The position numbers and the translations under genes are program-made. Positions 3,507 through 49,559 of a stretch of 64,000 bases of DNA are shown here, piece after piece. Origin of the DNA: an uncultured virus (IMG/VR IMGVR_UViG_3300037047_000119) (Duplodnaviria > Heunggongvirae > Uroviricota > Caudoviricetes); the IMG/VR virus record IMGVR_UViG_3300037047_000119. One strand, 5' to 3'. The notes beneath the pieces were generated by a model. It made no database searches. It was not told the DNA's origin and worked only from the letters and a program-made list of their open reading frames with translations. The first letter of the stretch is position 1. Every line of letters begins with the position of its first letter.

Positions 3507-6500
3507 TTACCCCCTTCTACCTGAGACCAGCGCCGTAAAATCTACGTCTGCATCGTAAACGAACTCCAGGTCTCCCAGAACGAGATACTCGGTGGGTCCG
3601 GGCGAAATGTTCTTTGTCCCGGTATCGTTGCTGACGATGTACGTCACGGTAACCCGGCCATCCGAGGGCGTCACTCTTTCGGGCAAAGCCAACAGCACCC
3701 GCCGGGCAGTCTCCCCTGTGTAACCTGGGATGCTCATCCCATTGTTGCCGATGATACATGCTGAATGGGCAACACCCTTAAGGGGTGCTCCATCGGCATT
3801 CGGGATAACTGGGTACAGAGTTTGGGGGATGTCATTGAAAAAGACCCCCCGAAAATCGTTATAGTCCCCACCCCCGTTTTCGGTTCCGCTTACAAGGGGG
3901 TTCTTTAGCAGGTAGATCGTTACCGCGTCCGTGTGCCATGGGTGCAACGGATCCGAGGAAAGAGCCACCCAGTCGGTACCGATCTCGGTTGTGACAGTCT
4001 CTTCCCTGACAACAATCGCCCCGTCCTGTCGTGCCATCTTGGTCAGCGGAATCACGGCATAGGAAACGCCAGGGACGGACTCGAGAGCGTCGATCACGTC
4101 ACCCTGACGCAAGGGCTGCCCCAGGGACAAGGCGCCAAACACACGCCCCAAAGTCGTTCGAATCAAACCTTCAACTGTAGACTCGACGGCGTTCTTTTGT
4201 AACACTATGGTCCCGGTAAGGTTCACCCCCACAGGGATGGCTTCTTTTGCGACCACATTCGCCGTGGCATGCCTTGTGAGATCCACGGTGTTCTGAACGG
4301 ACTGCACGATGGAATTGGTGGTATAGGTGACCACATAGTTCTCGTCGTGTTGATAGTCTACCAGTACTCGCATACCTTCGAGCAACCGGCCACCAGACAC
4401 CGGAACAAAAGCTAAAGGGCGTTCCCCGACCTCATCTGTAAAAGTGAAATCCTTCGGTGTGGATGGATGGAAAGGTCCGTAGTACTCGATCGTGCGGTCA
4501 TAGTTGTAAACATGGAGAGTATACTTGTTGGCCCCGAGATTGTTGAGGTACTCAGGACCTGTGAGCAAAATGTGCTCCTCCCCCGTTACCACCTGGGGAT
4601 ATCCGGTGGGGATATTCTCCGGAGTGGAACCATCGGTAGGCTCCACCACCTGAAAATAATCTCCCGCCTCGGTAGAACGTCCCAGCACCAGAGGATCGCT
4701 GGGGTGAAACAGTTTATAGGCGGAGGGGGAAACGATCTCTTGGGTGACCCCGTCATCGAGAACTCGATAGAACGATTTAATCTCGGTAACGGGCTGCCTC
4801 GTGAACACATGCTTGTTGCTTGTGCGGTACCTGTACGACCCGCGGAAAACATCGGTCAAACGAAGCAGTTCGGGATCGTTGTGCGTGGTAGACAACTGGA
4901 TCCCGTCCGGAGGAACGACTGTCACGTCCTGTAGGCTCAGAACATGGGTGACCCCATCTCCAGACGCTGTGAACTCGTACCCCCATGCCGCATTGTCTAG
5001 CATCTCGATGAGAGGATTCTCGTCCGAGACATTTGCATTCACCACCCGGAACTTCAGGTCCTCGATAGCCCCCACTGGTTCAAACTGACCATTGATGACC
5101 GACTCGAAACTGAAAGCGAAAGTGTCCGAGATGGTTGCTAGACTTTGACCCCTCACCCAAACGTCTACTTTGCCCCCCAGATGTCGGCCAGTGCTTTCAT
5201 CCAGATCCCTCATCATCAGAATGTGCCCAGCATCGACTACATTGACCTGTTGCACACCCGAGATCTTCGCCCGATCTGTGTACCCTCGGTAAGTGCCAGA
5301 ATCGACTCCAGCCAGAACCCCGTCCGCTCGGATGGCCAACTCGTAGTTGGACTCTGCGTTCCGACCCCCGTAAGTATCTCCCGGGTTCGTGACCTGAACA
5401 CCAGCAATCCCGTTGACTATTTGCCGGATCTGATCTCGGGTGACAACTCCAGCCGATCCCAGGTCGAGTGCCTCAATGTAAGCTCGGGCCGACCAACGTC
5501 CTGTGGTCGGATCGTAAGACGTTCCCGTCCCGGATGGGGTGATCCTGGCGGCGGATGTCGTACGAAACCGGGTCCCTCCTGAGGACAAAATCGTGCCAAT
5601 GGGAATGTAGATCACGGACGAGGGACGCTGAGTCACATAGAAAACGACCTCACCCCGTGCCCGGAAACCACCATTCCGTCGAACACCCCGACGACTGGCC
5701 AAATGGTCGAAGGCATTGTCGATCAGATTCTGAACGGACTGATTGTCCTGGAGGAAAAATGCCTGCTTGAGTGCCAGCTTATAAGGGGACTGCGTCACCG
5801 GAACGGAGATCTTAGACCCCGTCGGGTCATCAATCGCCAGCAGCGTAGTGAAACTTTGAGCATCCTGGAAGAATCCGATGATGAAACGGATTCTCTCTGC
5901 CTCCGTGGCAAATGGGTCGATGACGGTATCCCGGAGATACGACCCCGGCTTCACATCGACCTCTGGGTGCGTTCTGTAAATGGTGAGCGTCGAGTCCCGG
6001 ACAATCTGCTGTCGGGAAACAACCGGCAGATTGGACACCGCGGGTGTCACGATCAACGGGGAAGTAGCCACTTCTTGGGACAGTGCAGACTCGTACTCCA
6101 CTCCGTCGATGAAATAAATTGCCGTGGCAGCGTAGTACAGGGGATCTGTGTCAGGGATAGCTGTGAATTCCCCGTAAGGAATCGCGGGGTTCACACTCGA
6201 TGTGGGCAGTGACTTTCGATCATGCACAAAGAAATAACGTCGATCAACCGTCACTGCTTCAATCGTGGTGGTAGTCCGAAACCGTTGGACGGTGTCGTCA
6301 ATCTGAAGGATCTCGTTGAAATCCTGCTGGACTTCTTCCCCGCTCTGATCCGTCTGTGCTCCAAGTACCCGGAAAAACAAAGGGTCAACCACAGGAGAGC
6401 CGTCCGGTGTCGTAACAACCGTTGAGTCCACGGTCAGAGTTCCGATCTGACTTAGCTGCTCCTCGGTGGTGTAGGAGATAGCAGGCTGAAGGTTGATCCT

Positions 6501-12163: not shown

Positions 12164-15100
12164 GTTTTCTCCAGGGTTGTATTCAGAAGCAGATACTCCA
12201 TCTGTTCTTGCATACGAGCGGGCAGTTCCTCATCAAATCTCTGGATGGAGGCCAGTGTCCCCAGCAGTGTGTGTGTTCGATAGGCCAACCACACATATCT
12301 GAAGGATCTCAGCTTCTCCGTGACGTCCAAAACCTCATCGATAAGGTCCGGGAGCACCGGCCTTACGAGGCTACCAGATAGGGTAGTGAACTCGGTGTAC
12401 GGAGTGTCACCCGGGCCGGAACGTCTCATTCCGACTCCGCTGCTGGAGTCATAAGTCAGTGAGTCCAACTGTTCATCCAGGATCCAAAAACGACGATCCA
12501 ACAGGGATAGACATGCCGCGTTGTTGGCATACGGCATGACATCGACACGTCCCACAAACCCCATGAGGTAAGCATTCGACGCCACCCCTAGTCCCAGGAT
12601 GGGGTTCGTGGGACTCCCTACGTCGTACAGATGAGCGAACCGTTGGAACGTGAAATAGGACCCCCCTTTCGTCCCGCCGACCATTCGCAACGTCTCAATC
12701 AGAGAGAGAGTCCGCTCGCGATTCATCAGTACCAAGTCAATGGTCTCGGGCTCGAAAACTGATGTCGGCCGGATGACCTGATAGGAGAAAGGTCGGATCG
12801 AATGTTTGTTCAGCCCGTCGTCGTAACTTTTGAAAGATCCAGTTACCGGGTTGCGTGCCCGTGTCGGGCGCAGAGCCATCTGGGACTCGGTCTGGTCACC
12901 GGACAATGACGAGTCGTTCACCGTGGGGTATACGACGTATGCCCTCGTGTTATCGGAGGCATCAAAAATAACCGGATCGACGGCAGTTCCGGCGAAACTG
13001 TTGACCGGGTTCACTAACAGATAGGGGGGGTTCTCCGTGTCAACCACTTTCAGCACCCGGTAAAAACCTCGGTTGTCATCCAAGGGACTGGGGCGACCCG
13101 CCGTATACACAGGGGCCGCTGCATGGTCCACCCGTCCGGGAACGGATTCATCCCCAAAAGGACCGGAACTCGCTTCTTGGGCAGCGGGAGTCCCTCCACT
13201 GCCTCTCGGAATTGCACCCAAAGGATCGATGACAACAATATCGCCCTTGCGGACTCCCAATGCAGCAAATGTCTGCCCTGACCCCGGTGCTCTGAGATCA
13301 TCGTAGAGCCGGTTCACGGCGTCTCCGTAGGTCACAACCCCGGTAACCTGAGGGACATACCCCCCCAACTCACTCGCCTGCCCCCAGGCTGCACTCGTTC
13401 TGTACACACTCCGATCTGTGATGAGTTCCAACAACTGTTCATTGGACTGCTCGTGGGGGACAGGTGCCCGACGCAACCAGATCTCGAACCGAGTCGTCCC
13501 GTTAGCAACACTGTATTTCCGGATTCCCGGAGCGGCCAGTAGAAGTGACCCTTGCGAAAGTACTGTCTGAATCTCTATCTGTTCAACGCACATTCCGTCT
13601 TTGTCGAGCAATCGGAACAGGTCTCCTGGATGGATGTTGACATCCCCCGAAAGGAAACCCCCCAGATTTGTGCCGGAATACGTCCCCCCGTCGTTCCAAA
13701 CGTCCGGAGCTTTCGGCGCACCCGCGGGTTTGATGGTCTCCCAATTCATGGTGAAACGGGTGGCAAACACCATCGTGGTTTGTTTGACCTGCTGGGTAAT
13801 CCCTGTGATCAAACCACGCCGGATCTCGTAGGTAAACCGCAGGGGTTGCAAATTTACCAGAGACGCCCCAACATCATGAAAACGTCGGATCCTCCGGATG
13901 GCAAACGTAACCTCTTCTCCAATTTCAGGTGCCGCTCCTGACGTGTAGTACTCGTCCCCGTTACGCATCCCGATCTCGCGGTCATAGTCCGCGAGCAAGG
14001 TTGGATCCGGCAGACTGTGTTCCAAATCTACAACGCGAACGTGGCTCAAACTGGGCACCAGACCCACACCGGATCTCGGAACCGACGGCTGCAAAAACAC
14101 ACCGGCCTGAGCCCGGAAACCGGGCTGCAACACCCCACCACCATCCGGCCCCCGCAGGTCAAACCGAGTACCAGGAAGGATACAGTCGATTAATCCGGCT
14201 CCCACCCCAGCCGAACCCGTGGGGGAGTTCATCTTGCTCCAATTCGGGTTGGAGATCTGACGGAGATCCAGTGTGTGCGTAACCCAGTGGTAAATCTCCT
14301 CCGCCTCTGCGCTGTAAAACTCATGACTCGGAGGAGGATTCAAAGTCACCAAAGGAATGACGTTGTTGGCAGCGGCTACTTTACTCAGGGTGCCATCGGA
14401 GGCACCCGCCGCGGCAGCCGCTTTGAAAACCAAAGGCTGTGCATTTTGCACCGGGGACATGAACAAGCGTAGCTCAAGGGGCGGGGTGAGGGTCAGTCTC
14501 CTGAACCCGTATACGGAACTCCCACCCGCGTCGTATCCCACCACGTTGTTCGTCGGAAGCCCATACGAGGACCCACCCACTCTGACGGGCAGGAACTTCA
14601 TACCGGAAACCAACTGCCCCTCGTGCACCAGACTGGCAAAAGCGGCGGAGCCCAGCAGATTCCCCGCGGCATCCCTGAAAGTTCCCGGGGTCAGAGTAAA
14701 CACACCTGTCCCACTGGACTCCGTCACGCCAGAGTACTCAGCACTGATGACTGCCTGACTAAACTTGCCCGCGTCTGTGGATGCGAGATCCGCGAGATTC
14801 CGGATCACATAGATCCGAGCGGGCGCCGCTGGGAAACCAGAATTTACGGAGCCCACAAGTGGGCCACCCTTGGCAGGTGCCAGATCAGAGATCTGAAGCT
14901 GGAAACTCGGTCCCGGAGCATAGGCCAGAACGGCGGGGAACTGAATGGGTAGGAACCCATCTTCAACCCCCGCCGTGGCCGTCGGTGCAACCTCTCGGTA
15001 ACTCGTAGCTCCGGTCGGTTCTACCGCGTGCCTTACCAGATAGGTGCCGACGTGAACGGAACCCGGATGCGACGGATTGCTGGAACCCGTGATGACTGCT

Positions 15101-40019: not shown

Positions 40020-40240
40020 GCTTCCCTCCGGTTTGGGTGCCGTAGGAAGCAGTCTGTCGGCCCTAGCCAGCACAAGAGAGGACGTACGTAGACATCTGTT
40101 GCCGTACCCATCAACCATCCCCTGCGGGAGGAAAAAAGCTCAACAGGATACTCTACATTCGTCCGTCGGGTCTGTATCAGGCCGCCGGGGCTGCTTCCGC
40201 ATGTGTAGTACCAACCTGAAATCTCAGGTGGGCTTTTCCG

Positions 40241-41092
40241 TTAGATCTGAATGAACGCAGATTGCGTCCCGCCGCCACCAAGTCCACCACCGGCCTGGGC
40301 GATCGTAAACGCGGGATTACCAGAGGCGTAACGGATCGAGCCAAGCTGACCGATCGTGGGATCGTTACCCGTGGCCATGAACTCTCCGTAGACGCTCGCG
40401 AAGTCATGCACGTCAGAAACGTTGATGTCGCCCGACTCCATGATCATGCCGGAATCTTTCGAGAACGAAGCGTTCCAGGAGGTAAACCAGCATGCCTCAT
40501 AGATCGTGATGATGGCGCTATGCGCCCGGTTGTTCGTGTCCAGCAGCGGACTGCCTTTGCTTCCCGCATAGGTGACCTGGGGGTAGCTTACCGTTTTCAC
40601 ACCACCGTCAAACTGACCGGCCTGTCCACTGTACCCCGTATTGGCGGCTCCCGTAGCTCCTGCACCCATGTCGGCATCAGCCAGTGTGCTGAAAACCAAC
40701 TGCTGCTCCATATCGAAGGGCCAGCGGTGATGCCGTAGTGAACGGACCGGGCCGTCTACACCCGAGGCATAACCTGTGGCCTGCCACAGGTTGCACAGGT
40801 ACAGGAGCGCCCGCTCGAAGTTGCCGTTCATAGGCTCCGTCACAGACGGCACCAGTTCGGCAATCTGATCACCGAAACCGACCCCACGTACAGGTTCAAT
40901 GCTTCGAGACTCAGACGGGCTGAACTGAGATACGACCCCCATCTGATGCATCGCCTGTGTGTTGCCGTAGTGCGGGGTAAGGATCCGCACCTTCTGCGAT
41001 ACCGCCGTCCTGGTGTTGGGGGTCGACCCGTAGTTGTACAGGTACGAGGTCCCACCCACACCGTTCTGGGGATTGATGTCCTGATTCGCCAT
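40241..41092 (-). CDS. Tail tube protein
   Basis: GVVSQFSPSESR.IEPVRGVG....ELVP, PFDMEQ and YEACWFTSW......D..I.E match myovirus tube proteins; upstream of chaperones and tape measure. Confidence 0.75.
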   Translation of the reverse strand: MANQDINPQNGVGGTSYLYNYGSTPNTRTAVSQKVRILTPHYGNTQAMHQMGVVSQFSPSESRSIEPVRGVGFGDQIAELVPSVTEPMNGNFERALLYLCNLWQATGYASGVDGPVRSLRHHRWPFDMEQQLVFSTLADADMGAGATGAANTGYSGQAGQFDGGVKTVSYPQVTYAGSKGSPLLDTNNRAHSAIITIYEACWFTSWNASFSKDSGMIMESGDINVSDVHDFASVYGEFMATGNDPTIGQLGSIRYASGNPAFTIAQAGGGLGGGGTQSAFIQI

Positions 41093-41177: not shown

Positions 41178-43730
41178 TTAGAGGGTCTGAATGCCGACCT
41201 GCAGTGCCATGGCCAGGGCTCCAAAAGCGTGGGCATCCAGATCCACAGCAGCGTACTTTTTGAACTGGGGCTCCCAATCCCCCGTCAGGGCCTTCGTCCC
41301 GGCACGGAACAACGGGATCAGGGTCTTCAACACACCCAGTTCGGACACGTGCTGCTCCAGGAAATCCGCCAGCCGACTCAGGTGCGCCCGGTACATGGTC
41401 GTCTTCCCGGCGGAATTCTGGAGCAGTGCCAGAGCCAACAGGGTGCTCTTCATCACCCGAGACTGAAGCGTGCTTCCCGGATAGCCCCCGTCGCCCTGGA
41501 GTTTTCCGAGTGCCGAGAGCAACAGCGTCGCACCGGATGCCTGTTCCTGAACCAACTCGGAAATGACCTCCCCAAACCCGACTCCTCGAACGGCAGCCTC
41601 TGAGATCTTTCTGCGGGACCCCCGGAGCGGCCCCCCGGCACTCTTGGTGCCTGCGAAGGGCTGATCATCGGAGTCACAAAAACCGAGGTTCCCCCTTGAC
41701 CAGTTGGACGATCCCGCGGTAGAGGATCCCGCGGAAGCAAAACACGACACCGTGTACGCATCCGGAGGGGAATAGTCCACACTGGAAGCAAGTGGCGCGC
41801 TCAGGTAGTGGACATCAACTCCCCGGGATGGAGCGAAAGCACTTAGTCGGACATTGCTATCCGCGTGGATGATGGCACCACGTGTGCGGATCTCTTTCAT
41901 GTCCGAGGGCAACCCCACAGGGACGACCTGCTGACTCGGAGTCACACCAGCCTGATCCCCGACCCGTTTCACCACCGCGCACAGGCTCATCACCCGGCTG
42001 GCCAGTCCGAAATCGAGTGACAGCTTCTTGAGATTGATGTCCAGCACCTTGCTGGCAGGTCCGGTTTTAGCGATACCCATGGCGGACTCCAAGTCCTCGA
42101 TTTGTCGTCCCGCCCACAGAAGCGCCACCGTCCCGTCAGGCATCGCCCTTCTGACCCCCGACACATCCAGGGTCGTCCTCTCTCCTGCCCACTCAAGCCT
42201 GATCTGGTAGGGCAATGAGTCTCCCGTCGTCCCATTGTCCGTGATCACGATGGGCCGACCATCCCAGACCTCCCCAACGTCATGGGTCTGGGTCCCGGAT
42301 CCCTCCACATCAATGATCGCTTTCACGTTGCACTGGCGGGGACTCGTGACTGCGTTGAACAACTCCAGTCCAGCGACCGCCACGTCCTCGCGGACATTCA
42401 GCATGCGCTGAACACCACCCGTTCGACGTGCCAGCAGTGCCAGAAAACGATCCTGGGCGGCGTTTCCAATCCCGAGGACATGGACCCGGCAACCCGACGC
42501 GACAGTGTGCTCTACGATATCGCCGGTATCGGAAACCTCCCCATCAGTGATGAGGAAAATGTCCCCCGGTCCCCCCATAACCTCAATCGCCCTGGAGATG
42601 GCCGACAACAACTCGGTCCCTCCATCAGGATGGGTGTCCGCCAACCATCGGGTCGCCCGTGCCCGAGTACTCTCCGTGGCTGGAGCCATCGAGTCGTGGA
42701 AAACCTGCGTCGTCGCGTTGAACCTGAGCAATCCGAACTCGTCCGTGGGATGAAGCGCTGAGAGACACGCGATGGCGGCAACCCTTGCCTGGGTGATCCG
42801 GCTTCCTTGCATCGACCCAGAGCGATCCAGAATGAACATCACCTTACGAGAAGTCCTCGGTGCCCGCGGGACTCGGTCTGACGGAAGCATCGCCGTCCAG
42901 CGGGGGCTCTTGTCCGGGAACTGGGACGCCCTCGGGGTGCGCTGCACCAACGAGTCGTCCATGAACACGACCGGGTTGATCTCGCGGGTGGCAACGTCCA
43001 GTACCAGATCACGGTCGGGGTGATCGGACATCCCTGCAAGGCGCACATCCACGGATCCGTCAGCGTTCGGCTGCACCGAGATGTTGTGTGAAGGAGACGA
43101 CACCGTCCCGATGAGTCCGTTGGACTCGGCATGGAGATGGAACGAAATCTGATGAAGCTCCGAGGCGTCACTCCGCCATTCCGGCAGAGTCAGGTCGTCA
43201 AACACGTCCTGTGGCAGGTCGATCCTGTGCCCCAACGGAGTGGTGTACGCCCGCGACTGGCTGTGGTAGTTCGGCGCCAGCGTGAACGGGAACCGGAACC
43301 GATAGCCCTCGTCTCGGGTCTCGACGCCGCTGACGACCTCTACAGCCACCGTGATGACCTCGTCGGGCTGTACCTGACCCACAAGGATGGAGACCACCCC
43401 GTCCAGAGCGATTTCAGCCAGCGTCGAAAGGTGCCCTCCGGCGATGCCCTCCTCGTACTCCTTGCGGGCTTCCTCCCGAGGACTCAGCTTGGACTCCACC
43501 TCGAAATCCGCACCCTTGACTTTAAACCGCCGAACGACCCCATTCCGAGGAAGCTGAAAAACGTACACGGCCTCCATCGGCTGTTTCGTCTGGCACTTGA
43601 AGGTGTGGATCACCGTCAGATGTCCCCCCATGTGGTTCAGGTGTCCATTCAGTTCCAGCTTCTCCATGGCCAAAGGCACGGGCTGCAGTGTGCCTACCTG
43701 GAACAAACCGTTTCCTAGCTGCTCATACAT
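41178..43730 (-). CDS. VIT and vWA domain protein, 850 aa
   Basis: VIT: EAVYVFQLP...V..F...EARKEYEE.IAGGH...L. vWA MIDAS: FILDRSGSM, GGTEL, FLITDGE, VHVLGIG. Confidence 0.9.
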   Translation of the reverse strand: MYEQLGNGLFQVGTLQPVPLAMEKLELNGHLNHMGGHLTVIHTFKCQTKQPMEAVYVFQLPRNGVVRRFKVKGADFEVESKLSPREEARKEYEEGIAGGHLSTLAEIALDGVVSILVGQVQPDEVITVAVEVVSGVETRDEGYRFRFPFTLAPNYHSQSRAYTTPLGHRIDLPQDVFDDLTLPEWRSDASELHQISFHLHAESNGLIGTVSSPSHNISVQPNADGSVDVRLAGMSDHPDRDLVLDVATREINPVVFMDDSLVQRTPRASQFPDKSPRWTAMLPSDRVPRAPRTSRKVMFILDRSGSMQGSRITQARVAAIACLSALHPTDEFGLLRFNATTQVFHDSMAPATESTRARATRWLADTHPDGGTELLSAISRAIEVMGGPGDIFLITDGEVSDTGDIVEHTVASGCRVHVLGIGNAAQDRFLALLARRTGGVQRMLNVREDVAVAGLELFNAVTSPRQCNVKAIIDVEGSGTQTHDVGEVWDGRPIVITDNGTTGDSLPYQIRLEWAGERTTLDVSGVRRAMPDGTVALLWAGRQIEDLESAMGIAKTGPASKVLDINLKKLSLDFGLASRVMSLCAVVKRVGDQAGVTPSQQVVPVGLPSDMKEIRTRGAIIHADSNVRLSAFAPSRGVDVHYLSAPLASSVDYSPPDAYTVSCFASAGSSTAGSSNWSRGNLGFCDSDDQPFAGTKSAGGPLRGSRRKISEAAVRGVGFGEVISELVQEQASGATLLLSALGKLQGDGGYPGSTLQSRVMKSTLLALALLQNSAGKTTMYRAHLSRLADFLEQHVSELGVLKTLIPLFRAGTKALTGDWEPQFKKYAAVDLDAHAFGALAMALQVGIQTL

Positions 43731-44444
43731 CTATTCTTCTCCATTTTGGGAAATGTCCCGTGTGAGTTCTTCACAGGAGGACAAGAGTTCCGCGAATTCC
43801 GCCATCGCCGTTTTAATCAAGTTGACTGTCTGGGGGCTTTTTCGCCCTCGGATTTGGACTGTTACAGATTTTCCTATCCGGTGTTCCGTAACAATGATGG
43901 GGCCTGTCAGAGACTGATCCACCTTATCCTTCCCCAGTCGGGCTATCTGATGCAAACTCATTTTTGCTGCCCGTTGCTCAGCAATGAACTTCAATCGACT
44001 TAGATGACTTTGGTCATAATAAGAACTTGGGCCACGAAGTTTCGGTGGGTGAAGAACCCGCTCCGCGATATAGTAACGAATAGTCCTGCCAGAGACCCCT
44101 GAACGCTCCGCCAGTTGTGCTAAACTCATAGATTCCCCCTGCTCGGAGGGAACCTCCCACACAGGAAAATCCGGGGGCAATTCGTTCAGTTCTCCCGTTT
44201 GGGCAAAAGCCAGGAGTTCTGGAGTCGCTCGGAACCATTCTCCTTTTATACGGAGGGTAGAGAACTTGTGGTGTAGCATCCTTTCCGACCTAAACATGTC
44301 CTTGGTGGGGAGATACCGAAGAGGGACCAGATCCGCTAAACTTTGACTTTGAATAGCCGACATCCGAGATTCCGGATCTGCTGAAGCTCCGATCTTGATT
44401 GCACCGTTGGTAAGATCATGCAGGAAATAAACATACCCCTCCAT
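43731..44444 (-). CDS. T5orf172/GIY-YIG-like domain fused to a MerR-family HTH
   Basis: Start reassigned to ATG 44444 (AAGGAGG SD). GYVYF...IKIG.S.DP..R...E..LH..F...RI.GEWF followed by SLAQLAERSGVSGRTIRYY....L.PP......Y...HL.RL.FI. Confidence 0.85.
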   Translation of the reverse strand: MEGYVYFLHDLTNGAIKIGASADPESRMSAIQSQSLADLVPLRYLPTKDMFRSERMLHHKFSTLRIKGEWFRATPELLAFAQTGELNELPPDFPVWEVPSEQGESMSLAQLAERSGVSGRTIRYYIAERVLHPPKLRGPSSYYDQSHLSRLKFIAEQRAAKMSLHQIARLGKDKVDQSLTGPIIVTEHRIGKSVTVQIRGRKSPQTVNLIKTAMAEFAELLSSCEELTRDISQNGEE

Positions 44445-44495: not shown

Positions 44496-44550
44496 GAACT
44501 GGCTCGAAAAATTCTCGTTTTTGGGATCATCTGAGCGGCCGTTTGAGTAG

Positions 44551-44887
44551 TCTGGGTGTAGCAAGGCTGGCGGCAACAGTAAGCCCCCGGCAAGAAAAGT
44601 AAGACTGGCACCTGTTCAAAGGATATCGTCGCTATGCAACGTGCTCCGCCGTAACGAGAAACGTGACTGAACTGCCCCGCGTGGGGTTACTGAGGATGCA
44701 ACGGCAAGGGGGACGACGCCCCGCCCTGAGAAGGGGCGACGGTCGGTGGCAACAACCTGGGGTAACGGAGGTTTCCCATGATGCCGTAACGGGCGCCGGG
44801 AACAAACGCAAAAGATGCTACTTCAGAGTGGTGGAGACACCCCGCCTGGGCCGAAGGGGCATACGGTTCGGGCGGGGTGTCGTTTTT
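44551..44887 (+). ncRNA. Candidate multi-branched structured RNA of unknown class
   Basis: Eight or more nested helices found by eye in a gap with no credible ORF, ending in a terminator. Confidence 0.55.
44836..44887 (+). terminator. Intrinsic terminator
   Basis: GACACCCCGCC/GGCGGGGTGTC 11-bp perfect stem, extendable with G-U pairs, followed by GTTTTT. Confidence 0.75.
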
Positions 44888-44929
44888 GGTGTCATCGGAG
44901 TAGAGTCCCTCACAAGAGGAGGACTCTCA

Positions 44930-45091
44930 ATGCGTTGGGTTTTGGGACTACTGTTGCTGGGACTGTCACTGACGGTGTCGTGTGCCCACTTTCAGAAGGG
45001 CTGTCGGTGTGGAGGGGCGCACATCACTTGGGCTAAAGTGTGTCGGTCATGTCCTTGTGACTGCGACAAATGTGAGAAACCGTGTCCTTAA
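44930..45091 (+). CDS. Small Cys-rich putative lipoprotein, 53 aa
   Basis: AGGAGG SD; MRWVLGLLLLGLSLTVS-C signal peptide and lipobox-like site; 8 further Cys residues. Confidence 0.65.
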   Translation: MRWVLGLLLLGLSLTVSCAHFQKGCRCGGAHITWAKVCRSCPCDCDKCEKPCP

Positions 45092-46462: not shown

Positions 46463-47119
46463 ATGGGATGTGTATACAGACTCATAGCCCCCAATGGCAA
46501 ATCCTATGTGGGGTACACGCAGGATCTTGTCAAAAGGATCAAAGAGCACACCAGCTTGGCAAAAACCTCCGGGGACTACCTGATTCACAGGGCAATCCGT
46601 AAATACGGGTGGGATCAATTCCGAGTCGAGGTTTTATTTGAATCGAATGATCTCCAAAAGCTCAAATCCAAAGAGATCGAAAAAATTGTAGAACTGGACA
46701 CGCATGTGTCCTCCAAACGGGGGTACAACCTAACCAGAGGTGGGGACGGGGTATTAGGGCACCGTCATTCTCCCCAAACCAAAGAGAAACTTCGACTGTC
46801 TCATCTAGGGAAAAAACTTCTCCCGGAAACCAAACGGAAAATAGCGGAGGCACATAGAGGGAGAAAAAATACCCCCGAGCATAATCGAAATATCAGTTTA
46901 GCCATGATGGGACACCCGTCCTATAAAAAGTCTGGCACTCCCTGCAAAGAGTCCACCAGAGAGAAACTGAGCAAAATAATGCAGGGTAAAAAGTATCCCA
47001 GCCGAAAACCACCCCCGCCTATCACCGAGGAACACCGTCAAAAACTACGAGAGGGACAGGCCAGAAGACGAGCCAAAGAACAAGAGGAGAAAAGGAATGC
47101 TTCCGGAACATCTGCGTGA
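46463..47119 (+). CDS. Free-standing GIY-YIG homing endonuclease with NUMOD3-like repeats
   Basis: GCVY...YVG.T...KR..EH...E...GYN; repeated (H)S.ETK.K.S....GKK units. Confidence 0.9.
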   Translation: MGCVYRLIAPNGKSYVGYTQDLVKRIKEHTSLAKTSGDYLIHRAIRKYGWDQFRVEVLFESNDLQKLKSKEIEKIVELDTHVSSKRGYNLTRGGDGVLGHRHSPQTKEKLRLSHLGKKLLPETKRKIAEAHRGRKNTPEHNRNISLAMMGHPSYKKSGTPCKESTREKLSKIMQGKKYPSRKPPPPITEEHRQKLREGQARRRAKEQEEKRNASGTSA

Positions 47120-48038
47120 CTTTCAGACGCCCATTCGAGTTCTTGATCATGGCTACATACTGTTAATAGATGTTATGGGGGATGATGATGCGGTGGTTCA
47201 AGCAGCTAGGGTGTCTTATGCAAGGGGCACAAAAAAATCAAATTCCGACAAACAGCTTCTCCGATATCTTCTAAGATCAGGACACACATCGCCCTTTGAA
47301 CAGGCACAAATCAAACTAGAGATAAAACTCCCCATTTATGTCGAACGTCAATGGGCTCGGCACAGGACGGCTTCTTGGAACGAGGTGTCCGGACGATACA
47401 GTGAACTTCCGAACGAGATGCACACTACAGAAGGGCATGCCTTCCGAGTCCAGTCCACCGACAACAAACAGGGGTCGGGAGGATATCTCACAGAGTGGCC
47501 TACGGAAATCAGCCGCCCCGAGTTCGACGGCAAAAAACTCCCTGTGGGCGAGTACCTGTCAAAACAAGAGAACTGGCTGCATGAATCTGCCCACTGGATC
47601 TACCAGGAGCGCCTTGATCTCGGTGTCGCCCGAGAGCAAGCCCGATGCGTCCTGCCTGTCAGTACCTACACATCAAAGGTATGGACCATCGACCTCCACA
47701 ACCTGTTGAATTTTTTACGTCTTCGGATGGATTCCCACGCCCAGTTGGAGATTCGACAATATGCAAATGCCCTCGCTGAGATCGTCAAAAGCTGGGTTCC
47801 GTGGACATGGGAAGCGTTCGAGGACTACACTCTGGGGTCGATGACATTCTCCCGACAAGAACTTCTGGGGATTTCGAGTCTACTGAACCGCTGTGGGTCT
47901 TTGACCACCACGGTGGAGCATTCTGGCTTGAAGGGCAGAGAGGCTAAAGAGTTCAAGGCGAAACTGGTCAAACTGTGGGGACTGGATCCTCGCTGGGGAG
48001 AGTCTCTTTCGGAACAGCCACAAGTTCCCAAGCCGTAA
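47097..48038 (+). CDS. thyX: FAD-dependent thymidylate synthase
   Basis: AARVSY, H.SPFE, RHRTASWNEVSGRY signature, AREQAR.VLP, LR...HAQ.EIR.YA. Confidence 0.97.
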   Translation: MLPEHLRDFQTPIRVLDHGYILLIDVMGDDDAVVQAARVSYARGTKKSNSDKQLLRYLLRSGHTSPFEQAQIKLEIKLPIYVERQWARHRTASWNEVSGRYSELPNEMHTTEGHAFRVQSTDNKQGSGGYLTEWPTEISRPEFDGKKLPVGEYLSKQENWLHESAHWIYQERLDLGVAREQARCVLPVSTYTSKVWTIDLHNLLNFLRLRMDSHAQLEIRQYANALAEIVKSWVPWTWEAFEDYTLGSMTFSRQELLGISSLLNRCGSLTTTVEHSGLKGREAKEFKAKLVKLWGLDPRWGESLSEQPQVPKP

Positions 48039-48719: not shown

Positions 48720-48736
48720 TCATAGGGGTTCTAACG
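48720..48736 (-). promoter_or_regulatory. Putative phage late promoter (CGTT-N7-CTATGA)
   Basis: Repeated motif. Confidence 0.5.
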
Positions 48737-48895
48737 CACGTGCTCCATTTTGACGGGGTCTTCTCCGGAGAGAAGACGGCAGATCGCATCCGACTTGCCG
48801 ATCTGACACCGACCCATCTCAGCCTTGCGCTGCGCAGTCGGCATGCATCCTGAAAACAGGATCAGGAACAGGAGGCAGGTTAACAGGAGTTTCAT
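48731..48895 (-). CDS. Small putative lipoprotein, 54 aa
   Basis: Below the ORF-track cutoff. MKLLLTCLLFLILFSG-C signal peptide with lipobox-like FSGC; fills the gap after the 48906 stop. Confidence 0.6.
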   Translation of the reverse strand: MKLLLTCLLFLILFSGCMPTAQRKAEMGRCQIGKSDAICRLLSGEDPVKMEHVR

Positions 48896-49482: not shown

Positions 49483-49559
49483 GGTCAGGATTAAAAAATG
49501 TCAAAACTCCGGGAGGGCCATTTTCCATGCCTTTGGAGTAGAGTGAACCAAGGCACGAA

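Follow-up and report, generated by a model that had tools for sequence, protein, structure and literature searches.

Between the divergent T5orf172-MerR gene and a 53-aa ORF of an uncultured caudovirus lies a stretch (44551-44887) without an annotated protein gene, and the question it raises is whether it encodes a structured RNA of an unrecognised class, as the first-pass annotation proposed, a simpler small RNA, a leader of the gene downstream, or nothing functional at all. The 64,000-nucleotide window analysed here (the window is this whole stretch of DNA) is a piece of a jumbo-phage structural region in which a 1778-aa ORF matches a tail-sheath family and a 283-aa ORF (40241-41092), labelled as the tube gene by its position, has 45 relatives at 49-77% identity in IMG/VR contigs of up to 536 kb. 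The window DNA is present in four public runs, from groundwater in every case. The phage is nearly a singleton, since the proteins adjoining the candidate RNA fall into clusters of one or two essentially identical members and the next phosphoesterase to that of the window shares 44% identity; where these proteins have further database copies, the copies differ only at the start. The candidate RNA stands at the margin of a 6.7-kb block (phosphoesterase, GIY-YIG, and ThyX) that is missing in the closest relatives, where the ROS/MUCR, MerR, VIT, and tube genes are nearly contiguous.

The surroundings provided several observations in their own right. The sheath and tube genes of the window are separated by a T5orf172/MerR-HTH gene and a VIT-vWA gene (41178-44444), and MerR and VIT both occur at the sheath-tube position in nine of the 45 tube-gene loci. 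The GIY-YIG/NUMOD3 endonuclease gene overlaps the start of thyX (46463-48038), a pattern as for a free-standing homing endonuclease. Between the sheath and tube genes of one relative (L019, ~6270-6350), a tRNA-like sequence was noticed by eye, and four G-to-A differences at 40088-40104 of the window, in a single low-depth contig of the run X3, may be an error or a strain variant.

Table 1. Coordinates of the features at the candidate RNA locus (window positions; inferred features are named as predicted, putative, or -like)
Feature	Position	Strand	Remark
-35-like element GGATCA	44524..44529	+	putative clade-specific phage promoter
-10-like element GAGTAG	44545..44550	+	15-nt spacer; start predicted at ~44556-44558
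21-nt direct repeat copy 1	44515..44535	+	18/21 identical to 44880-44900
Predicted non-coding transcript, ~330 nt	44556..44887	+	promoter and terminator, no coding frame
End-closing helix	44558..44563 with 44816-44821	+	6 Watson-Crick pairs, pair probability 0.8-1.0
A-rich linker	44592..44604	+	predicted highly accessible; opposite a second A-rich linker at 44800-44815
Internal repeat copy 1	44695..44746	+	contains a 4-bp GAGA-loop hairpin
Strong Shine-Dalgarno (SD) and 3-codon mini-ORF, MMP-stop	44767..44789	+	SD duplex -10.2 kcal/mol
Internal repeat copy 2	44814..44871	+	contains closing-helix 3' strand and terminator 5' arm
Intrinsic terminator	44836..44887	+	18-bp stem including three G-U pairs, then five U
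Second GAGTAG box	44898..44903	+	upstream of the 53-aa ORF; putative weak or decayed promoter
53-aa ORF	44930..45091	+	lipoprotein-like, Cys-rich; strong SD (-11.3 kcal/mol) inside a predicted hairpin

The start of the unit is marked by a two-box motif (Table 1) that recurs in the intergenic DNA of relatives. Across 2.35 Mb taken from 11 related phage records, the promoter pattern had 46 matches, 22 of which fell outside long ORFs although such regions make up only 17% of the sequence, and the GGATCA hexamer was present in 6/22 intergenic versus 2/24 coding sites. A matrix built from the 22 intergenic sites and scored on 255,878 position-spacer-strand combinations of the window placed 44521-44552 at rank 1 (18.8 bits; training range 14.8-23.8). 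The site ranked second when the closest relative (G003) was omitted from the matrix and 12th with an earlier 9-site matrix restricted to GGT at the start position; the pattern had been widened at one position after the window site was known, which counts against the small RNA (sRNA) reading developed below. G003 carries five promoters with the same layout of GGATCA, 15 nt, and GAGTAG, and after one of them the next ten bases are almost identical to those of the window. In the relatives, the promoter usually lies 11-44 nt upstream of an SD-start (14/22 sites); in the window, the first strong SD-start comes ~220 nt past the promoter and opens three codons. The TAGTCT -10-like box that the first-pass annotation placed over the closing stem gives way to the clade-type -10 element, and therefore positions 44551-44555 of the closing stem are probably outside the transcript. 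Transcription probably starts at ~44556-44558, and the 5' strand of the closing stem appears to consist largely of promoter-associated consensus. The -10 box also resembles that of SigB/SigF-type promoters.

The motif extends beyond this locus as a clade-wide promoter, GG[T/A]TCA, 14-15 nt, and G[G/A]GTAG, ahead of accessory genes in these jumbo phages, with sites at 44524-44550 and 49512-49543 of the window and in the relatives' stretches L469, L532, L533, L544, L547, and L555; in G003 it forms divergent pairs. On the minus strand of another relative (G012, L473 ~14050-14450), a clade-type promoter is followed by ~360 nt with long hairpins and no SD-start, a stretch with no Rfam match that is unlike the window RNA, overlaps an opposite-strand ORF call, and is a possible second ncRNA.

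The strong terminator that had been noted after the RNA was borne out as an 18-bp hairpin (44836-44881) with a U-tract. Its folding z-score was -5.2 (0/100 shuffles as stable), and its stability was -33.4 on the plus versus -24.8 on the minus strand. Structure just upstream can weaken terminators, stable ones little (10.64898/2026.06.17.733018), and the terminator of the window is of the very stable kind. Between promoter and terminator, the codon score was at most -0.04 in all six frames, compared to a 1st percentile of 0.063 for chunks of structural genes, although low scores, down to -0.13, also occur among genes of the variable block. None of seven ORF readings overlapping the unit occurred in the protein collection, and a 142-aa open frame was rejected as a gene because it scored as non-coding and was missing from that collection. 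The SD of the MMP-stop mini-ORF is the sole strong one inside the unit, with an SD-start context matching that of the MerR gene. Two mini-ORFs, at 44634-44654 (MQRAPP-stop) and 44778-44789 (MMP-stop), both end in Pro-stop via one 9-nt repeat, which may be chance or a ribosome-stalling signal.

In the groundwater metatranscriptome X3, a 212-nt contig (44622-44833) falls wholly within the unit at a depth of 8.5 versus 2.1-3.8 for the other seven, among eight of the 11 X3 pieces. These contigs show neither strand, ends, nor level, the library may include DNA, and the run was itself found using this stretch; the run X2, guessed to be DNA, includes a contig with nearly identical boundaries (44629-44844). 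The X3 contig is thus weak evidence for expression of the RNA. Runs X1-X3 cover the RNA with zero variant letters. A real-looking non-coding transcription unit with its own phage-type promoter and terminator is well supported, and due to this promoter, the strong terminator, and the lack of a protein gene between them, the ~330-nt stretch is probably a real small RNA gene.

Analysis of the fold gave a different outcome. The first-pass annotation described a multi-branched RNA, and its helices exist in the sequence: six were verified at their coordinates and the remaining ones are readable. It had also named a non-significant folding z-score beforehand as evidence against the proposal, and by this measure the branched fold lacks support. 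The whole of 44551-44887 has a z-score of -2.62 because of the terminator hairpin; the core without it (44551-44828) has a z-score of -1.02, with 15/100 shuffles as stable, and from the predicted start (44558-44835) the value is +0.14 (108/200 shuffles). Watson-Crick helices of at least 6 bp number six in the core versus 6.7 in shuffles (98/150 reach six). The constrained fold of the annotation (-87.0 kcal/mol) lies 16 kcal/mol above the minimum free energy (MFE) fold (-102.9 kcal/mol), which pairs most segments otherwise, and an alternative with a 44577-89/44680-92 helix reached -91.4 kcal/mol; the three are mutually incompatible. The branched fold of the core is therefore unsupported and no better than chance, such that of the proposed structured RNA of unrecognised class the non-coding unit and the lack of an Rfam match stand, while the multi-branched fold and the structured class are not supported. 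Two elements exceed chance modestly, the 6-bp end-closing helix (44/3000 shuffles) and a pair of 4-bp GAGA-tetraloop hairpins (62/2000), both in tests chosen after inspection. Opening the linkers is predicted to cost 0.2 kcal/mol at 44592 and 0.5-0.7 kcal/mol at 44802-44805, their A-richness was not above that of shuffles (964/2000), and the composition is purine-rich and U-poor (G 94, A 73, C 71, and U 42).

The RNA has no Rfam match and is not called as a tRNA or tmRNA by ARAGORN. Rfam 15 had no matches in the 64 kb at the gathering score and six when E values to 10 were allowed, none scoring above 16.8 bits and all far below the cut-offs; at relaxed E there was none in 44545-44750 and one chance match in 44735-44860. 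A tmRNA was rejected since ARAGORN found no genes in the window and both ARAGORN and Rfam detect the tmRNA of the 536-kb relative G016 (L501 5790-6190), which has the tag ANDNVEFTSFAAAA and lies within a large tRNA cluster. No Rfam match was obtained for RNase P, SRP RNA, T-box, group I/II introns, and hammerhead or HDV-like ribozymes; partial look-alikes of these families, judged by eye against consensus motifs, are scattered and appear to lack their required partners. What we took by eye for look-alikes of Csr-sponge, guanidine-II, RAT, CRISPR-repeat, IS200/IS605-end, c-di-GMP, and cobalamin elements were dropped. The 6S RNA (RF00013) was likewise rejected, with no Rfam match and a branched MFE fold in place of a rod with a central bubble. 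Like 6S RNA and Ms1-type decoys, the window MFE fold has two facing A-rich single strands between helices, which resemble an open-promoter bubble; unlike 6S RNA, the bubble occurs only in a statistically unsupported fold and the distal part is branched.

The closest resemblance to a known family was to the ZTP (pfl) riboswitch (RF01750), for which the layout of P1, J1/2, P3/L3, and pseudoknot, and the P3/L3 hairpin with 14/15 positions conserved and a 3-bp stem, are given in bioRxiv 10.1101/521930. The window RNA has a similar order of P1 5' strand, J1/2-like motif, P1 3' strand, and short linker, with a P3-loop-like motif inside the terminator 5' arm. Against matrices from 13 real switches (13/15 loci used, two unparsed), the J1/2-like motif at 44563 scored 8.4 bits versus 12.6-19.8 in real switches (rank 40 of 127,976) and the L3-like motif at 44837 scored 6.5 versus 20.5-26.5 bits (rank 18 of 127,970), and the motif pair ranked eighth in the window. 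The L3-like motif opens with ACAC in place of GCCG or GTCG and the P3 stem cannot form. A pseudoknot of five pairs is possible (44569-73/44842-46), a result that depends on the motif match itself. Unlike the ZTP riboswitch, the window RNA lacks the P3 stem and conserved G, carries ~230 extra nt, and precedes a 53-aa ORF that is not a folate or purine gene. Membership of the family was rejected on the motif scores and the failed P3 stem test; the placement of the motifs as in a real switch keeps a switch reading alive.

Such a reading also draws on a feature absent from the first-pass annotation, namely that 44695-44746 and 44814-44871 are degenerate direct repeats (9/2000 shuffles). A full tandem duplication of two modules was rejected as the significance came from the 3' part alone (2/2000 with and 95/2000 without it). 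Because of the duplication, 44709-44726 can pair over 18 consecutive bp with the terminator 3' arm and U-tract (44870-44887), a duplex of -35.5 kcal/mol (0/1000 shuffles).

With this helix the unit could be a cis-acting, riboswitch-like attenuator leader that controls both the 53-aa ORF and antisense transcription into the convergent phosphoesterase gene, a reading considered rather unlikely. In its ON fold, the terminator 5' arm would be held by a GAGA hairpin (44830-44841) and the ZTP-like pseudoknot, and the 3' arm and U-tract would pair with the duplicated segment. Besides the helix and the ZTP-like motifs at ZTP-typical places, the attenuator is favoured by the weak promoter of the 53-aa ORF itself, the second GAGTAG box scoring 7.4 bits (rank 61 of 255,878), under the training minimum, and by one X3 contig that spans this ORF. 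The ORF is a probable but unproven gene by its sequence features, with a poor codon score (-0.40), no homologue, no Pfam or PHROG family, and an Atlas lead at 0.85 only; the variable block contains a second orphan ORF of this lipoprotein-like kind at 48731-48895, and the two measure 53-54 aa. It is usually the 5' arm of a terminator that an antiterminator captures, whereas this helix takes the 3' arm, made last, and forcing the ON fold costs 17.5 kcal/mol; on these two grounds the 18-pair helix may be a by-product of the duplication. The low ZTP scores and the lack of an Rfam riboswitch match weigh against the attenuator as well. A bolder variant, a new phage RNA switch or scaffold with a ZTP-like 5' module, a large insert, and a duplicated 3' module whose first copy could dismantle the terminator via the 18-pair helix, appears doubtful.

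How the unit is distributed bears on the other alternatives, and no homologue was found. BLAST against 50,697 phage records returned none at E 1 and merely 19-32-nt matches at E 2-8, a plasmid search gave six short matches (E 1-4), none credible, and among 29 related virus records the best hit (E 0.016) was a 16-mer within a tail-sheath gene. The single-sequence covariance model R1 matched 0/29 related virus records and reached at best 11.4 bits across 44/45 tube-gene loci and 100/120 stretches, and 8.7 bits on phage Tunturi_5. An nhmmer search of all 120 stretches yielded a best E of 0.91 inside an ORF. None of 301 genomes of one bacterial phylum had a homologue, and six pattern scans of viral contigs gave 0, at least 120, 4, 21, 89, and 0 matches, with 15 in genomes and at least 120 in metagenomes, all by chance; exact patterns are insensitive and the result reads as not found rather than absent. 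A literature search, with supplementary lists of candidate phage RNAs outside its scope, found no description of the RNA or the promoter. With no homologue there is no sign of selection, which counts against the sRNA reading.

One alternative is a relic of cassette shuffling that is transcribed yet has no function, its promoter and terminator still flanking a stretch that was partly duplicated and has decayed. The singleton status, chance-level fold, degenerate internal duplication, orphan strong SD ahead of a 3-codon ORF, and hypervariable position agree with such a relic; the near-consensus promoter, the intact terminator, and the closing helix and GNRA hairpins modestly above chance do not, and no frame retains the residual coding signal expected of a recent pseudogene. 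A relic is considered unlikely. An end-closing helix within a unit with its own promoter and terminator, the purine-rich composition, the two GAGA hairpins, and the lack of an Rfam match would also suit an RNA with a compact tertiary fold that belongs to a class not yet described, comparable to raiA or the ornate phage RNAs and acting as a ribozyme, a scaffold, or a ligand binder, and natural tertiary RNAs can show weak folding z-scores, which was counted in its favour. Like GOLLD, ROOL, OLE, and raiA, the window RNA is an orphan, non-coding, in a phage, and closed by a helix at its ends; unlike them, it has no Rfam match, is not widespread, and has no tRNA in the window. Ornate RNA classes are normally widespread, which was counted against this possibility together with the three incompatible folds and the failure to find the RNA in the 2.35 Mb from 11 related phage records, making an ornate class improbable.

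The preferred explanation, held tentatively at a little under an even chance, is a stand-alone, trans-acting jumbo-phage sRNA on a shuffled promoter-terminator cassette. The features of a stand-alone sRNA found here are an own promoter and an own intrinsic terminator with no protein-coding frame. Transcription of the ~330-nt RNA from ~44556 to 44887 would rely on an RNA polymerase whose sigma factor is phage-type or alternative, and the 5' end of the RNA would pair back to the segment before the terminator, stabilising the molecule. In the most speculative step, the sRNA would act in trans via the two open A-rich linkers, which may bind a protein (an RNA chaperone or RNA polymerase) or seed pairing with host mRNA; this mode of action is read from the modelled accessibility of the linkers alone. 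A target search in the window, in which 33 start regions were tried and one had no 8-bp helix, gave none of 32 that stands out, and ARN repeats are not enriched in the RNA (271/2000 shuffles). Antisense control of the 53-aa ORF was rejected: its 11-bp seed, with the 5' hairpin alone, was the best of 33 and with accessibility the third of 32. Regulation by sRNAs occurs in lytic phages, where it is predicted for few and poorly understood, and a single 75-nt candidate was predicted in phiKZ (PMC8244752). The window RNA shares with phage stand-alone sRNAs an intergenic non-coding unit between phage promoter and terminator, and differs in its length from the phiKZ candidate and in that no relative was found.

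The sRNA would have reached its position as a promoter-RNA-terminator cassette at the edge of the lineage-specific block, and recombination at the promoter repeats is the probable route by which it was gained. Two 21-nt repeats bracket the RNA gene, both with promoter sequence and with only two copies in the window (at most four mismatches), and the second suggests a collapsed promoter copy ahead of the 53-aa ORF. By analogy, the repeat-bracketed unit resembles the cassette shuffling mediated by PeSL in T4-like phages, where repeated promoter sequence and a terminator form one unit within a hyperplastic region flanked by core genes (PMC4122927). The terminator 3' arm of the window likewise overlaps the next putative promoter remnant in a variable block between core genes; unlike PeSL, the phage clade and promoter type are unrelated, the cargo is a non-coding RNA, and the repeat has two copies only.

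Because the RNA is a singleton, is unconserved, and folds no better than chance, it would be premature to claim a new class. If the switch or the ornate fold were true, it would represent a new RNA architecture in phages, the switch or scaffold being a structured RNA gated by a ligand or a protein, transcribed from a jumbo-phage sigma promoter, and unlike any system described. Known sRNAs of virulent or jumbo phages are few, and what they do is poorly understood (PMC8244752); the defined promoter and terminator of the window RNA make its ends and expression directly testable. Beyond the RNA, the promoter consensus helps the annotation of this clade of ~500-kb phages.
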